DNA from: Escherichia phage UPEC03
Sequence record: MW250785
DNA: 64,000 nucleotides
Direction: 5' to 3' (one strand)
Positions 6,251-50,525 of the stretch are shown in pieces; position 1 is the stretch's first letter, and each line of letters opens with the position of its first letter. Position numbers and translations under genes: made by a program. The notes under the pieces are model-generated. The model was given only the letters and a program-made list of their open reading frames with translations. It ran no database searches and was not told where the DNA came from.

Positions 6251-6383
6251 GGATTACCCCAAACAGATTTTACATTTACAGAGAGGACATTCCGCCTCTT
6301 TAACGCGCAAGCGCTTTGTTGCTGTTCGCTTCGCTGTGTTGTGATCATACACATGCAAACAGCGATAACAGATCACCAATCGT

Positions 6384-30377: not shown

Positions 30378-31531
30378 TATTTCAACTCCACTGCATATAC
30401 ATCGGTTTCAGGGGCTTTGTGTACGCGCATATCTTTACCACATACCGCATAAGCCGGACAGTTACGGCAACCGTTATGATCCTTGTTGCCCGTCAGTTCT
30501 TTACGGAACTGTTTTGTTTTCGGGTGTTCCCAGATATCCTTCACAAAATCTTCGGCTTCCAGAACATCCAGACCTTCTTCCCAGCCACCTTCAACCCAAC
30601 GTTCGGTAAACGAGCAAGGGAAGAACTGACCACGTTCATTAATGTAAGAGCTAAACATCGTCGCTTCACAGTCTTCGGCGTATTGCTTGTACTGTTCGAA
30701 GTTCGGGTGTCCCTCCATCGCTTCAACGAAAGCGGGGGCTGAACAGCTATCGAATCCAAATCCTACACCAGAATCGAGGCAATATTCAACAAGTTTTTTA
30801 TATTGTTCGCGGGTAACGGTGTCCCAGTTCTTACCGCGTCCTTTTTGTTTCAGTCCCAGGAACACGATCGCGTTGACTTGTTTCAGGCGCGGATCATTCT
30901 TCACGGCATCAACCACGTTAAACGCATCATCATAGGTTTTCGAGCTAACCATGAAGTGAAGGTTGATTTGCTGTTGTCCGGCTTCTGTCAGGTTCGCTAC
31001 TGAGTCGAAAGCGACATCAAAACCAGCGTGTTTATAAACCGATACCGCAACAGCCCCAGCAACCGCCGCTAAACGCGCTGCAACGTCTTTTGATACGTCA
31101 GCAATGGTAAGGTTCGGTACAATGCCTTTAGAACGCGCATACGCCATCATATCGAACATATCAGGGTTTGTTTGCCCCTGTGCATCAGCACCGAGTGCGC
31201 ATTGAGTCAGCCAGGGCATTTTGTCGATGATTTTTTTGAAGTTGGCAAGATCCATGTTGAACCCGTTAGGGTTATTGGACTTGTAGCAGAACCCGCAGAG
31301 TTTACCAGCGGGACCATTACATTTGGTAGTGATCTCAACATCCAAGATTTCTGGGAATGGGGCATAGGTAGGATCAGTTTCGAACGATGTTCCCCAGCGA
31401 GCAAACTCACCAGTTTTAACGTTGAAATTGTAGTTGTACCAATTAGAGCGAGCGAAGCGCATATTACCCTGCTGGTAAATCATTAGCGAAGGGGCTTTCA
31501 TTACAGTCTGTGCGCGGTCAATAATATCCAT
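30377..31531 (-). CDS. Cys-rich protein, radical-SAM/SPASM-like (tentative; non-canonical Cx7CxFC)
   Basis: N-terminal CNGPAGKLCGFCY (aromatic residue before the third Cys); C-terminal CRNCPAYAVCG cluster; 384 aa. Confidence 0.4.
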   Translation of the reverse strand: MDIIDRAQTVMKAPSLMIYQQGNMRFARSNWYNYNFNVKTGEFARWGTSFETDPTYAPFPEILDVEITTKCNGPAGKLCGFCYKSNNPNGFNMDLANFKKIIDKMPWLTQCALGADAQGQTNPDMFDMMAYARSKGIVPNLTIADVSKDVAARLAAVAGAVAVSVYKHAGFDVAFDSVANLTEAGQQQINLHFMVSSKTYDDAFNVVDAVKNDPRLKQVNAIVFLGLKQKGRGKNWDTVTREQYKKLVEYCLDSGVGFGFDSCSAPAFVEAMEGHPNFEQYKQYAEDCEATMFSSYINERGQFFPCSFTERWVEGGWEEGLDVLEAEDFVKDIWEHPKTKQFRKELTGNKDHNGCRNCPAYAVCGKDMRVHKAPETDVYAVELK

Positions 31532-39782: not shown

Positions 39783-40451
39783 TTACACTCTTAAAAGATT
39801 GAATACATTAAGCACGTTGCGTTTCAAATCGTCTAACGTACCATTATTTAGGATTGTATAATCACTCAAGCCAGGTGTCAAACCTTTCTCCGTTGAATGA
39901 TTATCTTCAATACCAGTTTCACGTTCAAGGAACACAAAGCGAGTCCCGAACTTGCTCAGGTATTTATATTCGTGCGGTTGACGCACATCGGTAATGATAA
40001 AGTGATCCGCGTAGGATTTCAACATTTTTTGAAGCGCAATTGAAGTCCAGATAGACGGATCTACTTTACAAACAATATCAGTCCCGAACACCTGCATCAA
40101 ACGGCGAATCGTCCAGGGCTGGGTGTTTTCTTCGCAAATTTTATGAGCGATAACATCTGCGTTACTCATGAAGAACCCGCGAGAACTTAATTTTTTGATA
40201 CCGCTAGAAAACAGCGTGTATGCATCGTTATTGGACATCACCAGCGGGGCTTCACGATCACCCTCATAGAATGGGTTCTTCGCTGCCAGCGCTCGCAATT
40301 GCGTGTTATCGTGATGTTCCATAGAACGTTTCAGGATAGCTTTGATTTCGTCGGCTAACGCGATAACTTCAACATTGCGGAAGTTATGCACAACCATTTG
40401 AGCAACGGTATCTTTACCCGTTCGCTTTTTACCACAAATACCATAAATCAT
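39783..40451 (-). CDS. 1: Deoxynucleoside monophosphate kinase
   Basis: P-loop GICGKKRTGKDT; IRRLMQVFGTD, TDVRQPHE and HSTEKGL parallel T4 gp1 motifs. Confidence 0.85.
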   Translation of the reverse strand: MIYGICGKKRTGKDTVAQMVVHNFRNVEVIALADEIKAILKRSMEHHDNTQLRALAAKNPFYEGDREAPLVMSNNDAYTLFSSGIKKLSSRGFFMSNADVIAHKICEENTQPWTIRRLMQVFGTDIVCKVDPSIWTSIALQKMLKSYADHFIITDVRQPHEYKYLSKFGTRFVFLERETGIEDNHSTEKGLTPGLSDYTILNNGTLDDLKRNVLNVFNLLRV

Positions 40452-40999
40452 TTTTGCGTTTTCCGTGGAGTAGGCACGATCACCCGTCCGTCGATCTCAA
40501 TTTCCATGTGAGCGAAGTTGAACATCGTCATACAGGATACGGCTTCATCCGAATCATTGGTATACATAAGCTCAAGCTCTCCGAGGTTGGAGGGCCAAGC
40601 GCCATAGAAGCGAAATGTCGCTACAGTTTTTGACTGCGAGTTATCCAGGATATGCAAAGCCATTGCCTGTTGTGGTTCACTCCAACGCACGGAATCGAAG
40701 GTGTTAAAATCGACAGTACCGAGCATCCAAAGGTAAACCCCAAGATACGATCGCAGTTCTTCATCAACAGCAAAACGAATAGTCAGTGGATCGAACTCCA
40801 TTGCAGATCCTGGGATCTTCCCTCGAATCATTGGGTTCAGTGGGACATCCGTAATTGGAATGTTGATAGAAGGTAGTGTAACACCCTGAACTTGTAGTTT
40901 CAACCCTTTTACATAATCATTGTCAGGAATATCTAACATGAAGTTAGTAGGTGAAATCTGGTTCAGGATCATAGCAGTTGTATTCATGATGATCTCCAT
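40448..40999 (-). CDS. Tail completion / sheath stabiliser protein (gp3-like)
   Basis: 183 aa; 4-nt overlap with gene 1; T4 order 1-3-2-4. Confidence 0.45.
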   Translation of the reverse strand: MEIIMNTTAMILNQISPTNFMLDIPDNDYVKGLKLQVQGVTLPSINIPITDVPLNPMIRGKIPGSAMEFDPLTIRFAVDEELRSYLGVYLWMLGTVDFNTFDSVRWSEPQQAMALHILDNSQSKTVATFRFYGAWPSNLGELELMYTNDSDEAVSCMTMFNFAHMEIEIDGRVIVPTPRKTQK

Positions 41000-41025
41000 T
41001 TTATAGATATTTAGATCAAGACCGT

Positions 41026-41184
41026 GAGCGAAGCGAACACACGAACGAAGTGAGTGTTATGTACGATGTACTGTTTATAATATTTATATTTTATATATAG
41101 AGAAAACAGTACATTTCCGTATACTTTTTATACAATCGTTAACTATCCGTCTTCGCTTCGCTTGACGGAACTCGCTTCGCTCGC
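41026..41184. promoter_or_regulatory. Divergent intergenic region with nested inverted repeats
   Basis: GAGCGAAGCGAAC (41026-41038) vs TCGCTTCGC (41153-41161, 41172-41180); inner ATGTACTGTTT (41066-41076) vs AAACAGTACAT (41104-41114) around an AT-rich core holding minus-strand TATAAATA (41081-41088). Confidence 0.4.
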
Positions 41185-41210
41185 GATCTAATTTTTAGTT
41201 GATCTATTCA

Positions 41211-41217
41211 ATAAATA
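41211..41217 (+). promoter_or_regulatory. Candidate late promoter (ATAAATA) for gene 41256-42041
   Basis: caATAAATAgg about 39 nt upstream of the ATG; an overlapping sigma70-like TTGATC-N17-TATCAT is also present. Confidence 0.35.
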
Positions 41218-41255
41218 GGTATATCATACCTATACTTTCAAAAGAGATTGAAAAC

Positions 41256-42041
41256 ATGAAATCATTCAAAGAACTACTTTCTGAATCTGTTCAGAACAAA
41301 AAATTTGCTAAGACCGTTGATCTGGTTGACCGTGGTAACGCTGCAAAAGGTCAGATCGGTTTCCTGCATTTTGCACATGGTGCTGATTACGATGTGTATG
41401 CGCCGGACTCCCACGATCTCGCTTACTTCGGTAAAGGTGTTGTCCGCCTGAAAGGTAAAACCACTGGTAAGACTCAGGCAGCGTATATTGACTGGGCGAA
41501 AGGCACTGTTTCATTCTACAGCGGTGATCCTGCTGACGATCTGAAATTTGACAAGCCACTGAAATTCAAAGGCGCTTCCCTGTACAAAGAAGCCGAAGAA
41601 AACCTGGATCTGTACAATCAGTTGGCGGAAGATTTCGAGATTGATCTGCCTCTGGATGAAGCATTGGTGAAAGGAAAGGTGTACAAGCTCCCAAGTAACG
41701 ATATGTGCTTGCTGTATACCGGACGTACCAAAACCAAAGAAACAGGTGAATACGCCGTGTTTACGGTTGTAGATGCCTCTGGTAAGCCTCGTCTGGTATC
41801 GGGTAAACGCTTTACCCAGGAATACAAAGGTGATGTTCTGTCTAAACTGGTTCTAGCTGAATCAGAAGATTTGAACGAAGCCGCTAAAGATATTCGCGAA
41901 AAAGTTATTGCGGTGTTGGTGAAACGTGGGTTTAACGAAAAAGACGCAGAAAAGATGGTTGATAAAAACCTGAAAGATGCGATGAAGGTTCGACCTGGCG
42001 CAACCCCTGGCAAACTCGCGGAAATCGTGAGTATCCTGTAA
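41256..42041 (+). CDS. Hypothetical late protein (261 aa)
   Basis: ATG at 41256 (listed start at 41199 is TTG); visibly optimised codons (CGT, CTG, GGT, AAC); own promoter and strong terminator; inserted between gp3-like and gp2-like genes on the opposite strand. Confidence 0.6.
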   Translation: MKSFKELLSESVQNKKFAKTVDLVDRGNAAKGQIGFLHFAHGADYDVYAPDSHDLAYFGKGVVRLKGKTTGKTQAAYIDWAKGTVSFYSGDPADDLKFDKPLKFKGASLYKEAEENLDLYNQLAEDFEIDLPLDEALVKGKVYKLPSNDMCLLYTGRTKTKETGEYAVFTVVDASGKPRLVSGKRFTQEYKGDVLSKLVLAESEDLNEAAKDIREKVIAVLVKRGFNEKDAEKMVDKNLKDAMKVRPGATPGKLAEIVSIL

Positions 42042-42045
42042 AAAT

Positions 42046-42078
42046 AAAGCCCCTTCCTTTCGGTTGGGGCTTTTTTGT
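42046..42078. terminator. Intrinsic terminator between convergent genes
   Basis: AAAGCCCC-TTCCTTTCGGTT-GGGGCTTTTTTGTT. Confidence 0.6.
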
Positions 42079-42932
42079 TAATATCTGTTCCAAACTTTCT
42101 TCGCGCTGTATGGTTTTCCTTTGGACTGGAAAGCCTGTGTAGGCAACCAAACTGCTTTCGCCCAATCTTTTGGGGCGATCTCTGCAAGTGGTGAACGTAG
42201 ATGGGCTGGCAGATAGGCTTTGATCATTTGATCAGCCCCGCGCATTCCCTTCACGTTGTTCCAGTTGATTTTCAGTCTGGTTTTGTTAGAAAGTCGATCT
42301 GTTGATCCGTAGCCACGTTTCAGGAGTTCTTCTAAAAACTCTTGACGTGCTCGCGGTGGCGCATAGTGCAAGTTCAGCCCGTAAAGAACCAAGTTACCCG
42401 CTTTCGAACGTCCTGAACCCAGGAAAATGATCAGCGGGAACCGATCCCAGTATGGCAGGGTGTCTTTGTATTTCGCATCGTAGATGAACGTATACAAACG
42501 ACCCGTTGCTGGTTTCGCAACCCTGTGCGTCTTAATGCTGGTTTTGATGAAATCACCAAACCAATCGGTCGAATCTTTCTGACGTTTCGCAGCGGTTACA
42601 CCAACAGTCATTTTCTTCAAACTGTTGCGGAAATCGTTTACGATATCAACCGCGTGTTTTTTGCGATAATCATTACGTTTGCGTCGGGCTTCGGTTTCTG
42701 CTTTACGGCGTTCGATTTCATCATCAATCTGCTGCTTATAGCGGTGCATAGACTTTGTGAACGTTGCGTATGCAATCCCGTTTTCGTCCGCGAACTTTTT
42801 GGCTGTCATGCCTTTTAATTTTGCGCGTCGGAATTTGATACCAAGTTCAACCCATTCACCCAGCTTTCGCTTCGGTGGTGGTTTTGGCTTGTCTTCTTCT
42901 GCGATGATCTCGAACTCAAAAATAAAACTCAT
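42078..42932 (-). CDS. DNA end protector protein (gp2-like)
   Basis: 284-aa basic protein; strong SD GGAGGG; minus-strand AATAAATA late-promoter-like motif about 20 nt upstream (42951-42957); synteny 4-2-3-1. Confidence 0.45.
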   Translation of the reverse strand: MSFIFEFEIIAEEDKPKPPPKRKLGEWVELGIKFRRAKLKGMTAKKFADENGIAYATFTKSMHRYKQQIDDEIERRKAETEARRKRNDYRKKHAVDIVNDFRNSLKKMTVGVTAAKRQKDSTDWFGDFIKTSIKTHRVAKPATGRLYTFIYDAKYKDTLPYWDRFPLIIFLGSGRSKAGNLVLYGLNLHYAPPRARQEFLEELLKRGYGSTDRLSNKTRLKINWNNVKGMRGADQMIKAYLPAHLRSPLAEIAPKDWAKAVWLPTQAFQSKGKPYSAKKVWNRY

Positions 42933-42953: not shown

Positions 42954-43421
42954 TTATTGCCCTTTCCATCCGAACACACGTTTCAATGTGTCCTCTGTGA
43001 TGATCTTGAACTCCCAGCCCTTTTGTTTTGCTGCTGCATTCGCGGCTTTCCATTTGTCAATGTTTACTGCATACGTATACAGTGCATCAACGAATTTCTT
43101 TTTGTTGTGAACGTTGTTGTTCGCTGGCTTAGGTGGGGGCAACGTTTCTTTCATCGGTTTGACTTCCCAAAGGTAGGTCACTCCATTATCCATTTCGACA
43201 TAGAAATCCATGAAGTAACGCCGTCGCTTTCCGTCTGCGTTGCTGAAATAAGGGATCACAACGCATTCTGAATTCCACCTCTTTACGTGGGGATTTCGGT
43301 CTAACCAATTCATTATATATTTTTCCCATGAAGAACGATATGTTATTTTTCTGGGATCTCCTTTATACTTTTCTATCTGTTGTGGCATAAAGGAACCTTT
43401 GTATGTCTGTCTTCCAGTCAT
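42954..43421 (-). CDS. Head completion protein (gp4-like)
   Basis: 155 aa (T4 gp4 about 150 aa); position between gp2-like gene and the 53/5 block. Confidence 0.45.
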   Translation of the reverse strand: MTGRQTYKGSFMPQQIEKYKGDPRKITYRSSWEKYIMNWLDRNPHVKRWNSECVVIPYFSNADGKRRRYFMDFYVEMDNGVTYLWEVKPMKETLPPPKPANNNVHNKKKFVDALYTYAVNIDKWKAANAAAKQKGWEFKIITEDTLKRVFGWKGQ

Positions 43422-44089
43422 TATTTCACCTTACAATTATCAAAATGCCACCTATACATTGCTCTGGGGTTTCCTTCTTTTCCGCAATGTGGACATATTA
43501 CAGGTTTCGTGTTTTTAGCTGAGTCGCGCATCTTTTGTTTTGCTTCTTCGCTAATAATTCTTCCTGTTAACGAAGCGCTAAGGTTATCTCTATGCTCTTT
43601 AGAACGGTTTGACGCAACTCTACTCATTTTTTGTTTGAATTCATCACTTCTCTTTATTCCGGTCATCCCTTCGGAAATACTTTTCTTGTGTGCTTCTGAT
43701 AGCGGTTTCCCTTTTATTGATTCTCGTCTTTTTCGTTTCCAATCATCGCTACGTGGTGGGTGTTTAGTCCCTATAGAATTGATTCGATTTTGTTCGGCTA
43801 CTTTCTCTCTGATCCATCCGTAAGTTCGAGAAGTCATTCTTCCAGAATGAAATCTTGATGCCATTGACATCATCTTACACGCGTATATAAGTTTTCCGTT
43901 TGTTGGGTACATTTTGACGAGTAGTTGATGGGCGAGATAGTGTTCTTCGGCAGTGAGACAAACGATATTTTCGGGTTCGTCCATTCCTCCCATACACCGA
44001 GGGATGATGTGATGGTTTTCTGAATACCCGCTTATAGTTCTTGATTGTGCTCTTTTGATAAGAAGTTCATAGTGTTTGCGGTAATTCAT
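43421..44089 (-). CDS. HNH homing endonuclease-like protein with basic repeats and C-terminal zinc ribbon
   Basis: HHIIPRCMGGMDEPENIVCLTAEEHYLAHQ; C-terminal CPHCG...C; AT-rich; sits between gp4-like and gp53. Confidence 0.75.
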   Translation of the reverse strand: MNYRKHYELLIKRAQSRTISGYSENHHIIPRCMGGMDEPENIVCLTAEEHYLAHQLLVKMYPTNGKLIYACKMMSMASRFHSGRMTSRTYGWIREKVAEQNRINSIGTKHPPRSDDWKRKRRESIKGKPLSEAHKKSISEGMTGIKRSDEFKQKMSRVASNRSKEHRDNLSASLTGRIISEEAKQKMRDSAKNTKPVICPHCGKEGNPRAMYRWHFDNCKVK

Positions 44090-44098
44090 GCGTATTCC

Positions 44099-44105
44099 CT
44101 AAATA
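44099..44105 (+). promoter_or_regulatory. Candidate late promoter (CTAAATA) for gp53-gp5 operon
   Basis: ccCTAAATAgt about 32 nt upstream of the gp53 GTG, with AGGAGA SD between. Confidence 0.4.
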
Positions 44106-44136
44106 GTAGTAATATTCATATTTAGGAGAAGCCATC

Positions 44137-46456: not shown

Positions 46457-48547
46457 ATGATCATGGATTACGAAACCATCATTGATGGGATTATGCAAAA
46501 TTTTCAGCATCCTTGCGATGCTGAGATCCCCGCTGGATATTACCGACGCGTTATCTGGCAGGGACACACAGAAAATTACCCCGCTGTTGGGGTAGAATGG
46601 GCGACCGAAATCATCCCGATCGGAACTCACCTGTATACGAGTTCCCCTTTCGGGCAGAAAAGCGATCCGCTTCCGGTGGTGAACTCTCCAAACGTACCCA
46701 CAAACCCAGATGGAAGCCCTGGAGTTTCTACTGATATTCTGGTTACGAAGATTGGTTATTATTTCGCCAGTCAAGCGGATATTGATGCCTATATCACATC
46801 GATCGGGGCTACGAAGCTCGCGGGCAATGACTGGTACGGGGCTGATTTGTCAAAAGCGAATCTGTTCAAGAACCCTGGCGAACTCGCAATGTACAAGGCG
46901 GAAAACTCCGGTGGTTACTTGCTAACTTCCGGCCCCCGTTGCGATCAGCGAATCCGACAGGTATACAATCAGACTACAGGCGCATTTACCAGCATTGATT
47001 ATTACTGGAATGGCAATCGTATTGCTTACATGAAACACGACGAATCCCCAGCGCACCAGTGCAAGTATACAGGGATGTCAGTAAACACGAACGCAGATAC
47101 CAGTATTCCTCCGGTTCCTCCGGCTCTCCCGTCAACGTATGGGGCGCTACCGAGTGAGATCTCTTTGTTGCGTTCTGCTCGTTCTGGACTGGGTTGTATT
47201 CCGGCGACCGTAGGCTTTGCATACACTAACATTAGTGATGCTATGTTGTCCGCATGGAACGAGACTCGTAAAACGTTCAAGCTGGCTTTTGATATGCTGA
47301 CGGGTACGATTAAGAACGGTACGGGCATTGCGACGATGTTTGACGGGCTTTCGATCGGGATGGAAGAAATCACAGCGGGTGCTCTGGCATTGTCACAGCA
47401 AGCATGGCAAACCGCAATGAAGGTATTCCGACAGATCATTAGCTCTGCGTTTAACATCGTGGGCGGGGCGTGGGATTTGATCAAGAATTTCCTCCCGACT
47501 GTTGCGATCATGGGTGTTGCGATCAACATTTACGATCTGGTGTTTGGTGATAGTTCGGTTCAATCCCTGAAAGATTCTTTCCAGTCTCTGATTGATTCCG
47601 GCGCACAGACGTATGAAAGCGTCATAAACGCAATATACGGGGCTATAGGCAGTTCTTACAACTACGCCGTTGAATACGTCAAGGCTGGCGCTCGCGACCT
47701 TGTAGACGCGTGTAGCGCGTTATTTGACTGGTGTTTGACTATGTTCCAAAATGGTTGCGTTGCTTTGGTGGATTTGTACGGGCGTATGATGCAGATCTGG
47801 TCAATGCCTCCTGAAACACCAAACCCGCTTTGGTCTGCGGTGTTGGCTATCCGTAACATCATGCGGCAGATTAAACCACTTGATGTGATTCTGGGCGGTA
47901 ACTTCCCAGGGTTTACAGCAATGGATCTGTATCAGCAAGCACAGGTCAAGGTTAAAGCAGTTATCGATGCATCATATGCGCAGATCTCCGCATTGTATGA
48001 ACAGGCGCAAGAAGTTTACAAAACCTTGACTTCTCAGACTCAGGAAAGGGATTCGATTAAACGTAAGTTCGACCAGTACCTTAACTGGATGTGGGAACCT
48101 GTAACTGAAATGGCTACCGCTGCTTATCAGGCTTCACTCGATGCAGCAAACGCGGCTATTGCAGCGACTAAGGCAACATATGAGGGCATCAAGGCGCAGA
48201 TCGCATTGTTGCAGGATGGATTGAAAGACACCTACAGCATGGCGATGGATGAACTCAAGAAACTTCCTGTAATGGCTCAGATTAACCAGTTCTTAGGTTA
48301 CTGTGGGGTTGCATTCGATGACCTGTTAAAAACGTATGACAACGCACTGACGGGCGCTAAATCGCTATACAAAGACTTTGTTGACAGTTCCAGATCGTTT
48401 AAGGATACATGCAAAGTAATATATAACCAGATTTGTACGCTTGCCCTAAGTAAAGTGACTCAATATGTTAACAAGCTATTGTCTCTGATTGGACTTGCGA
48501 TCACTTTCGGTTCGATTAGTGTTTGCGTCCCTATGGTTCAATACTAA
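46457..48547 (+). CDS. Hypothetical 696-aa protein between gp5 and gp6 with hydrophobic helices
   Basis: ATG 2 nt after gp5 stop; hydrophobic segments (NFLPTVAIMGVAINIYDLVF; C-terminal LLSLIGLAITFGSISVCVPMV) and long helical A/Q-rich region; no PAAR motif seen. Confidence 0.6.
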   Translation: MIMDYETIIDGIMQNFQHPCDAEIPAGYYRRVIWQGHTENYPAVGVEWATEIIPIGTHLYTSSPFGQKSDPLPVVNSPNVPTNPDGSPGVSTDILVTKIGYYFASQADIDAYITSIGATKLAGNDWYGADLSKANLFKNPGELAMYKAENSGGYLLTSGPRCDQRIRQVYNQTTGAFTSIDYYWNGNRIAYMKHDESPAHQCKYTGMSVNTNADTSIPPVPPALPSTYGALPSEISLLRSARSGLGCIPATVGFAYTNISDAMLSAWNETRKTFKLAFDMLTGTIKNGTGIATMFDGLSIGMEEITAGALALSQQAWQTAMKVFRQIISSAFNIVGGAWDLIKNFLPTVAIMGVAINIYDLVFGDSSVQSLKDSFQSLIDSGAQTYESVINAIYGAIGSSYNYAVEYVKAGARDLVDACSALFDWCLTMFQNGCVALVDLYGRMMQIWSMPPETPNPLWSAVLAIRNIMRQIKPLDVILGGNFPGFTAMDLYQQAQVKVKAVIDASYAQISALYEQAQEVYKTLTSQTQERDSIKRKFDQYLNWMWEPVTEMATAAYQASLDAANAAIAATKATYEGIKAQIALLQDGLKDTYSMAMDELKKLPVMAQINQFLGYCGVAFDDLLKTYDNALTGAKSLYKDFVDSSRSFKDTCKVIYNQICTLALSKVTQYVNKLLSLIGLAITFGSISVCVPMVQY

Positions 48548-48551
48548 ATAC
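48545..48551 (+). promoter_or_regulatory. Candidate late promoter (CTAAATA) upstream of gp6
   Basis: aCTAAATAcc about 20 nt upstream of the gp6 ATG. Confidence 0.3.
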
Positions 48552-50518: not shown

Positions 50519-50525
50519 CTAAATA
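50519..50525 (+). promoter_or_regulatory. Candidate late promoter (CTAAATA) upstream of gp7
   Basis: gCTAAATAtg about 36 nt upstream of the gp7 ATG, immediately after the terminator. Confidence 0.35.

Follow-up and report, generated by a model that had tools for sequence, protein, structure and literature searches.

What function is served by a nested palindrome lying between gene 3 and an adjoining open reading frame (ORF) in a phage of the T4 type? The question was raised by a 64,000-nucleotide stretch of Escherichia phage UPEC03 (sequence record MW250785), referred to here at its full length as the window, where a first-pass annotation had noticed nested inverted repeats in the divergent intergenic region at 41026-41184 and had read them either as an operator for divergent promoters or as a cruciform/origin-like element. 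We observed that these repeats belong to a single element which recurs at conserved sites in related phage genomes and is also found in bacterial defence islands. The cruciform/origin-like alternative gained support from covarying base pairing and from the three conserved sites, and the operator alternative proved to be poorly supported. We tentatively regard the sequence as a DNA-level, cruciform-capable element of the replication-origin type, and would put the probability of this at about 40%.

By megablast, the 99% matches to region 40400-42100 of the window were phages of Enterobacter, Cronobacter, Citrobacter and Klebsiella that belong to the genus Pseudotevenvirus, the RB43/leE-like T4-type members of the Straboviridae. 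The window corresponds to positions 61268-126333 of Cronobacter phage leE. The outer arms, the 11-bp repeats and the minus-strand TATAAATA were all found exactly where the first-pass annotation had placed them, and the nesting turned out to be larger than it had described. Positions 41019-41189 form one large imperfect palindrome of ~170 bp, which is made up of GC-rich outer arms, an inner stem of 7-8 bp and an invariant AT-rich centre. The outer inverted repeat extends to 18 nt at 89% (arms 41019-41036 and 41172-41189), and the inner one can be extended to arms of 23 nt with 78% complementarity. The parts of the element are as follows.

41019-41189, no strand assigned: composite palindrome, copy c1 of the three-copy element; outer repeat of 18 nt at 89%, DNA fold z = -5.35
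41026-41038, plus strand: left outer arm, word 1 GAGCGAAGCGAAC, with the GCGAAGC mini-hairpin motif (GNA triloop)
41028-41036: GCGAAGCGA, the core of the outer arm
41040-41056, plus strand: word 2 of the left arm, CACGAACGAAGTGAGTG; able to fold as a hairpin (GAA loop, tandem G.A mismatches)
41059-41064: direct ATGTAC duplicate ahead of the inner left arm
41066-41076, plus strand: left arm of the inner inverted repeat, ATGTACTGTTT; covaries (columns 28-35 of alignment A1, below)
41081-41088, minus strand: TATAAATA, incidental
41086-41106, no strand assigned: AT-rich centre, ATATTTTATATATAGAGAAAA
41104-41114, plus strand: right arm of the inner inverted repeat, AAACAGTACAT
41147-41168, no strand assigned: right-arm stem-loop CCGTC TTCGCTTCGCTT GACGG, read from the sequence and predicted in both RNA and DNA folds
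41153-41161 and 41172-41180: TCGCTTCGC
41171-41183, minus strand: right outer arm, reading CGAGCGAAGCGAG on that strand; pairs with 41026-41036

Fold prediction, which had been named as a check, bore the structure out. As single-stranded DNA, the 181-nt region was predicted to fold at -32.7 kcal/mol against -17.4 kcal/mol for shuffled sequences (z = -5.35), and none of 200 shuffles was as good; RNA folds of its two strands gave z = -6.1 and -5.4. TCGCTTCGC was counted four times in the window where 0.53 would be expected, a number reached in 0/100 shuffles. A search for the inner 11-mer elsewhere, also proposed at the outset, returned three matches with at most one mismatch against 1.4 expected. 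Since the inner 11-mer is not significant alone, the reality of the inner repeat rests on conservation and covariation.

When the 181-kb genome of leE was searched by BLAST, an element of ~155-170 bp was observed three times, in one orientation.

c1, leE 103787: junction of gene 3 and the ORF; counterpart of the window copy
c2, leE 31382: between rnh (reading leftward) and gene 55 (reading rightward)
c3, leE 139463: between gene 24 and uvsY, both reading rightward

About 65 nt in the middle of the element are near-identical among the leE copies. The words GAGCGNAGCGA, CACGAMCGWAGKGAGTG and TATATATAGAGAAAA are restricted in leE to the three elements and follow a fixed strand pattern: GAGCGNAGCGA occurs exactly six times, three per strand, and TATATATAGAGAAAA three times, on the plus strand only and once per element. 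Word 2 likewise occurs once per leE copy on the plus strand only and is conserved across all Pseudotevenvirus copies, and the middle loop base of word 1 varies (GAA, GTA, GCA, GGA) in Phynn, vB_EcRAM-01 (RAM) and the islands. The right-arm stem-loop is conserved in c1 copies and in island copies. By BLAST the element is present in about 64 phage records, all Pseudotevenvirus-like. All three syntenic positions are occupied in RB43, RB16, vB_EcRAM-01 and Morganella phage Mm5; Phynn was sampled at two sites and JC221 at one, and the element was present at each. The same three positions therefore recur in every fully sampled phage, across genera, so that the repeats are conserved in related phages, a point on which the first-pass annotation had made its case depend. 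We saw neither variable insertion sites nor target duplications in phages, as might mark a mobile repeat resembling miniature inverted-repeat transposable elements. Scanning IMG/VR with the AT-rich core returned mostly genomes that were already known, together with unrelated AT-rich contigs.

Two other items from the first-pass annotation were reassessed. TTCGCTTCGC, which had been noted to recur near 6322, does so as an exact 9-mer at 6326-6334; it lies within overlapping ORFs and is accompanied by none of the other motifs of the element, and as a further copy it was rejected as a chance match. The minus-strand TATAAATA is present, but was not upheld as a late promoter: it is missing from the RB43 copies and from leE c2, and its three occurrences in 64 kb are what chance would give. 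Because it is not conserved between copies and stands at chance level in the window, we regard it as incidental.

The repeat also leaves traces in sequence records. The GenBank records of Mm5 and HK6 (PP337149.1) and an IMG/VR contig (L031, L033) start or end inside the core of the element, and the two ends of the Mm5 record (L191/L192) carry a 40-nt duplication at the junction; evidently, the three-copy repeat breaks or mis-joins assemblies. 'Hypothetical protein' ORFs have been annotated over c2 in leE (E_051, 31327-31461) and in vB_EcRAM-01 (L011 254-400), and these are probably spurious gene calls on the palindrome.

Evidence for selection on pairing comes from the inner stem. Its sequence differs among phages, and complementarity between the two arms is kept through five or six variants.

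leE and this window: left ATGTACTG, right CAGTACAT
RB43, RB16 and CfP1: left AACTACAT, right ATGTAGTT
vB_EcRAM-01: left ATGTCTAC, right GTAGACAT
Phynn: left ATGTCCAC, right GTGGACAT
Mm5: left TGTACCCT, right AGGGTACA

In an alignment of 29 sequences (A1), two-sided change was observed in six inner-stem pairs (for example UA/AU 15:14 and GC/CG 15:14), and columns 29-34 were nearly always paired. The covariation score was 0.228, compared to 0.084 for shuffles, 0/500 of which reached 0.228, and 0.018-0.051 when the partners were slid. Since the rows of A1 are related and the copies partly homogenised, these figures stand for roughly five or six independent variants and not for 29. As judged from the aligned sequences, pairing of the inner stem is shown to be under selection. 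The other copies were also predicted to fold well as DNA, with z = -5.72 for c2, -11.18 for c3 and -6.05 for Mm5 c2; all copies are palindromes over the whole element, and Mm5 c2 has an outermost stem of its own (AACGTAGTTT/AAACTACGTT). Phage EC-W2 carries a leE-type stem (ATGTACTG/CAGTACAT) at c1 and a RAM-type stem (ATGTCTAT/GTAGACAT) at c3. A genome that mixes stem variants implies that each copy must match only itself, and such self-matching speaks for a role of structure, and less for a sequence-specific binding protein common to the copies. The wobble cells, four T.G and four C.A, show no strand preference, so a single folding strand cannot be claimed. The apical AT helix is almost invariant and hence uninformative on pairing, and a fold-predicted lower stem, TGTACG/CGTATA, was set aside as unsupported, being paired in 45% of cases across the alignment.

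The stretch from about 41077 to 41106 contains no C and only two G, which is the AT-rich, unwinding-type composition of T4 R-loop origins. Not a base of the 21-bp centre varies among the copies sampled from Pseudotevenvirus-type phages and from islands of the B and C types, and the centre differs by one to a few bases in A-type island copies, Phynn, JC221 and Mm5. We propose that it is an unwinding core or an apical region.

The promoters around the element were observed to point away from it. Those features of the c1 flanks which bear on this are the following.

41199-41227, plus strand: sigma-70-type promoter TTGATC-17-TATCAT, 9/12 consensus, facing away from c1 toward the downstream ORF
41008-41014, minus strand: CTAAATA, a late-promoter-like motif for gene 3, outside the element

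At c2 (TTGACT-16-TATAAT and TTGAAA-17-TATAAT) and at c3 (TTGACC-17-TATAAT and TTGACT-16-TATAAT), outward promoters matching the consensus at 11/12 positions stand on both sides, and the outer arms end directly upstream of the -35 hexamers of these divergent promoters. The promoter scan found no leftward sigma-70 promoter at c1 and no strong promoter reading into c1 or c2; the only internal or inward candidate is weak (TAGAGA-16-TATACT, 9/12) and is present in all copies. No TGCTT MotA box was seen at the copies. A scan for terminators, taken as a GC-rich hairpin followed by a T-run, found none at c1 or c3 and one at c2, whose end carries a terminator-like hairpin AGCGCTTCGCGCT followed by GATTTTATT. 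An Rfam scan of the region at E values up to 10 returned noise only, the best match being let-7, which scored 21 bits where the gathering score is 53.5. The element is thus probably untranscribed from outside. Since the promoters face outward, no strong inward promoter was found and Rfam gave no match, it is most likely that the element acts as DNA and not as RNA.

Full-length, near-identical copies are not confined to phages. They came to light in a metagenome scan with an arm word, and the element is present on two contigs from metagenomes, on the chromosomes of two E. coli, on a circular plasmid of 10.8 kb and in a record deposited as a Citrobacter plasmid. Among loci with close homologues of the neighbouring YagK/YfjJ protein, the element was present in 12/12 examined. 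It lies downstream of the YagK/YfjJ ('inovirus-type Gp2') gene and in the same orientation at all 12, at a distance of 160-200 bp, and likewise in five other contexts, at 178-867 bp. The sole exception among contexts with an examined neighbourhood is island L171, which has the element, but in whose upstream gap, the expected place of the gene, no ORF reaches 70 aa; one YagK/YfjJ homologue of 58% identity had no element at its locus. The protein contains the HUH-like motifs HYHCW and YLAK and matches Pfam YagK_YfjJ_C (E = 1e-10) and, weakly, REP_ORF2-G2P. No homologue of it was found in the phage genome, either by tblastn or by a hidden Markov model search over all six-frame ORFs.

In these islands a large serine recombinase and a resolvase accompany defence cargo (a Gabija-like OLD ATPase with a UvrD helicase, a CBASS cyclase, a TIR protein or an SMC-like ATPase), and the islands are located at malX or close to yeiP. 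They were observed in Enterobacter, Citrobacter, Leclercia, Kluyvera, Klebsiella and E. coli. Phages with the element are on record from Enterobacter, Citrobacter, Klebsiella and E. coli, among other hosts. Inner stems of the leE, RB43 and RAM types were all observed in islands. The island arms are chimeric, with a c2-like left arm and a c1-like right arm, and in some islands the similarity does not stop at the element, but reaches the -35 region of the promoter at phage c1 (TTTTTAGTTGATCTA). The stem type does not go with the protein: proteins that are 88% identical accompany A- and B-type elements, and proteins that are 45% identical accompany identical A-type elements.

Some islands repeat the left arm directly, just after the right arm (ACTTCAA..GAAGCGAAGGACACGAACGTAGTGAGTG, ~44 bp). 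This direct repeat is full-length in pTR_1_35 (L167 4700-5060), degenerate in L051 (10700-10760), and occurs also in L201-L205. The C. freundii record p6_C (L168, 1-8077) was deposited as a plasmid, yet carries torA, torD and yeiP; in its island the element is followed, ~440 bp downstream, by a CBASS cyclase with SMODS and AGS-C domains, which has the same orientation.

How might such an element work as an origin? The invariant AT-rich centre would be readily unwound, and the covarying 7-8 bp stem and the GC-rich arms with their GNA triloops, placed around it, would favour either duplex opening or cruciform extrusion. Outward early sigma-70 promoters on one or both sides would feed negative supercoiling into the element, as in the twin-domain model, and the opened or branched DNA could then serve as a loading site for the phage replisome. 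The gp59 protein of T4 prefers forked and cruciform DNA. Both cruciform extrusion in vivo and origin activity are what we infer from the architecture of the element and its positions.

These positions resemble those of T4 origins. In leE, c2 (31.4 kb) and c1 (103.8 kb) are the two minima of the cumulative GC skew, c1 being the global minimum, and they are also the two major coding-strand switches of the genome. Copy c3 is directly upstream of uvsY, and c2 abuts rnh, the neighbour of gene 34 on the T4 map. In T4, the origins oriE, oriF and oriG, of which oriF is ori(uvsY) and oriG is ori(34), lie at transcription strand switches, and T4 origin fragments of ~100 bp lead to plasmid replication in infected cells (PMC3016281). 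The element is like oriF, oriG and oriE (PMC3016281) in providing several short AT-rich sites per genome, at strand switches, at uvsY and beside rnh. That small fragments of T4 origins suffice for plasmid replication would explain why host elements copy the sequence, and, were phage-dependent replication conferred by the element, matching copies in host islands would be no surprise.

Several observations weigh against an origin. Copy c3 is off any skew extremum, and skew in T4-type phages also follows transcription, so that the coincidence of c1 and c2 with the skew minima is not independent evidence; as noted, only about 5-6 independent variant types lie behind the covariation. BLAST of the element gave only about 64 Pseudotevenvirus-like records and no similarity to T4 origins. 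The latter are without a common motif (PMC3016281) and are not palindromes, whereas here the copies are near-identical palindromes. In T4, the two well-studied origins, oriF and oriG, rely on transcription that enters the unwinding element from a MotA middle promoter; the strong promoters here are directed outward, in contrast to the inward promoters of the oriF/oriG class. The invariant centre and the arm words suggest that a protein or enzyme probably reads the sequence, which a simple unwinding element would not need, and the presence of the bacterial element beside an HUH-type gene that is absent from the phage means that it may primarily be a part of that system. The invariance of the centre and the arm words is fully explained by none of the readings considered here.

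Among the alternatives, the element could be a promoter/terminator insulator cassette of the PeSL type, in which GC-rich stem-loops would halt transcription, or insulate it, beside early promoters close to the consensus, and which would also be a substrate for modular recombination among phages and with host elements. In other T4-type phages, PeSLs combine a stem-loop with a sigma-70 early promoter and bring about shuffling (PMC2839356, PMC4122927). With these cassettes (Arbiol et al. 2010, PMC2839356; Comeau et al. 2014, PMC4122927) the element shares a GC-rich stem-loop, a near-consensus early promoter and repetition within the genome, and, as with them, recombinational exchange could plausibly act on it. 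A strong outward early promoter abuts each copy (11/12 at c2 and c3, 9/12 at c1), so that the coupling of stem-loop to promoter is present throughout; the terminator-like hairpin at the end of c2, the location of c3 after the late gene 24, the mosaic of stem types across the EC-W2 copies and the chimeric arms of the islands all fit as well. However, PeSLs are short and numerous and lie in hyperplastic regions beside ORFans, whereas this element is ~170 bp long, with nested palindromes and an AT-rich centre, in just three copies at conserved core-gene junctions, and it also occurs in bacterial islands. There is no terminator-like site at c1 or c3, and without a strong promoter into c1 or c2 there would be nothing to terminate. 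A simple terminator accounts for neither the invariant 21-bp centre nor the covarying inner stem, and RB43-type phages are unmentioned in the PeSL papers (PMC2839356, PMC4122927). On balance we consider a PeSL-type cassette unlikely, though by no means negligible.

The island gene offers another alternative, in which the element belongs primarily to the HUH-type, inovirus-Gp2-like YagK/YfjJ system as an origin or nick site for rolling-circle replication or mobilisation, and the phage copies are either domesticated or a target of the island protein. The placement of the element downstream of this gene, in the same orientation, in all 12 loci and the five other contexts, and the HYHCW, YLAK and YagK_YfjJ_C signatures of the protein speak for it. 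The origins on which HUH enzymes act are hairpins or cruciforms that contain a conserved nick sequence, and such action would explain an invariant centre within a variable stem. As in the rolling-circle origins of HUH Rep proteins (pT181, pMV158, Ff gpII and geminivirus-type), a conserved sequence lies in or near an extrudable hairpin whose stem varies, and the bacterial copies have an HUH-type gene adjacent; in size and imperfect-palindrome architecture the element is also like single-strand origins. A cognate initiator on the same replicon accompanies the island copies but not the phage copies, and, unlike in HUH Rep replicons, the variant of the inner repeat changes without regard to the protein. 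Synteny of the three phage sites across genera implies an ancient phage function, and both L171 and the 58%-identical homologue break the pairing of gene and element. Rolling-circle initiators are not known to be used by T4-type phages. We therefore judge a primary role in the YagK/YfjJ system to be rather improbable.

An operator, which was the leading idea of the first-pass annotation, would require a phage or host protein to bind the symmetric arms and control the flanking early promoters. The symmetric architecture, the high sequence conservation of the outer arms and their ending immediately upstream of the divergent -35 hexamers at c2 and c3 are all in keeping with this. Yet c1 has one flanking sigma-70 promoter only, gene 3 having its own CTAAATA motif, and about 70-110 bp separate the promoters from the inner half-sites, which are wholly different in sequence between phages. 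One binding protein would be expected to meet the same half-site at each copy, and the mixed variants of EC-W2 argue against it. The islands keep the element without equivalent left flanking promoters, and no candidate regulator was found, the adjacent ORF having no match to a DNA-binding domain. An operator is, in our view, distinctly improbable. Finally, a structured RNA, either a small RNA or a cis-regulatory one, is highly improbable: the strong folds on both strands, the several G.U-compatible stem cells, the weak internal promoter-like site in all copies and the terminator-like hairpin after it at c2 would suit such an RNA, but all strong promoters are directed away from the element, Rfam gives no match, the wobble pairs show no strand preference, a plausible small-RNA terminator exists at c2 only, and the element is kept in islands with different flanks.

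If the replication-origin reading is extended to the islands, the element would be a Pseudotevenvirus-type replication origin that has been copied by serine-recombinase defence islands of Enterobacter, Citrobacter and E. coli (those with a YagK/YfjJ gene and Gabija, CBASS, TIR or SMC-ATPase cargo), in variants matching the local phages. We regard this extension as speculative and unlikely. Were it true, an island would be amplified on phage infection and perhaps recombined into, or packaged by, the phage. That would make it the first island, phage-triggered or like a satellite, to be linked with lytic phages of the T4 type, and a parallel in nature to the origin-plasmid system of Kreuzer and Alberts. 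Like phage satellites and phage-inducible islands (PLE, PICI, P4), these are host mobile islands that carry a cis element related to a specific lytic phage, with a replication-type gene and recombinases of their own. Unlike PLE, PICI and P4, the islands examined were found to have no capsid, packaging or helper-redirecting genes, and their cargo is defence. No satellite is known for phages of the T4 type.

The origins of T4-type phages are, as far as we are aware, essentially unmapped outside T4. A whole genus and its relatives with one recognisable three-copy, structure-constrained element at origin-like positions supplies a concrete sequence for origin testing. The link between a cis element of a lytic T4-type phage and mobile defence islands of its hosts, beside an uncharacterised HUH-type family of the E. 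coli 'y-ome', YagK/YfjJ, was unexpected. It makes testable the function of YagK/YfjJ, the possibility that defence islands sense or ride T4-type phages, and the question of whether an arms race lies behind the inner stem's rapid turnover, in which pairing is preserved. No description of the element was found in the PeSL papers, in the T4 origin review (PMC3016281) or in full-text searches on RB43 origins, inverted repeats and YfjJ/YagK.

The arm words have a structural parallel of their own. The d(GCGAAGC) and GNA-triloop mini-hairpins are reportedly due to Hirao and colleagues, and the arm words resemble them in holding GCGAAGC, in varying at the middle loop base and in having the purine-rich version on the 5' half of each strand. 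However, d(GCGAAGC) is a structural motif and not a functional family, and the mini-hairpin in the element is putative. The words share the architecture C-GA-NC-GNA-GN-GA-G, a GNA-triloop hairpin with tandem G.A mismatches (for example CGAGCGTAGCGAG, CACGAACGAAGTGAGTG and ACGACCGAAGGGAGT). Such words, often in tandem arrays, were also observed in Bacteroidia, Chitinophaga, Cytophagaceae, Calditrichia, Clostridia, Mycobacterium and one archaeon (Altarchaeum). A word scan of genome contigs (L169-L190) gave 22 loci where, by our own estimate, roughly two would be expected; examples of arrays are L176 7260-7500 (minus strand), L173 7000-7090, L181 5586-5700 and, at contig ends, L186-L190. No Rfam family covers these hairpin-word arrays, and an Rfam DUF805b match near one of them was discarded as a different motif.

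The genes on either side of c1 are the following.

40448-40999, minus strand: gene 3 (head-proximal tip of the tail tube), left neighbour; probable start at 40987, as in the leE annotation
41256-42041, plus strand: ORF of 261 aa between genes 3 and 2, always accompanying c1

On the T4 map no gene is known between genes 3 and 2. The 261-aa ORF had no match in Pfam and no sequence match in the PDB, and it matched PHROG 7322, which is listed as of function not known. Its small family of 16 homologue clusters includes proteins of Phynn and JC221 and is characterised by an invariant His and Asp (LHxxHG.D...D.HD) and swappable C-terminal modules. The AlphaFold2 model (pLDDT 73) gave no global Foldseek match at E <= 0.001. 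The only local resemblance, between the C-terminal ~50 residues and domain III of RuvA (49 columns, with a Foldseek probability of 0.98), was considered too weak and was not used.

Elsewhere in the window, a 222-aa ORF resembling homing endonucleases of the HNH type was observed between genes 4 and 53 (43421-44089, minus strand), where no gene is annotated in leE. The CTAAATA motif of gene 3 is also found directly upstream of genes 53, 6 and 7, and C/ATAAATA is kept in the c1 copies of RB43, RB16 and RAM. Late genes here are preceded by CTAAATA or ATAAATA, and not by the T4 consensus TATAAATA, the sites being 41008-41014, 44099-44105, 44119-44125, 48544-48550 and 50519-50525.

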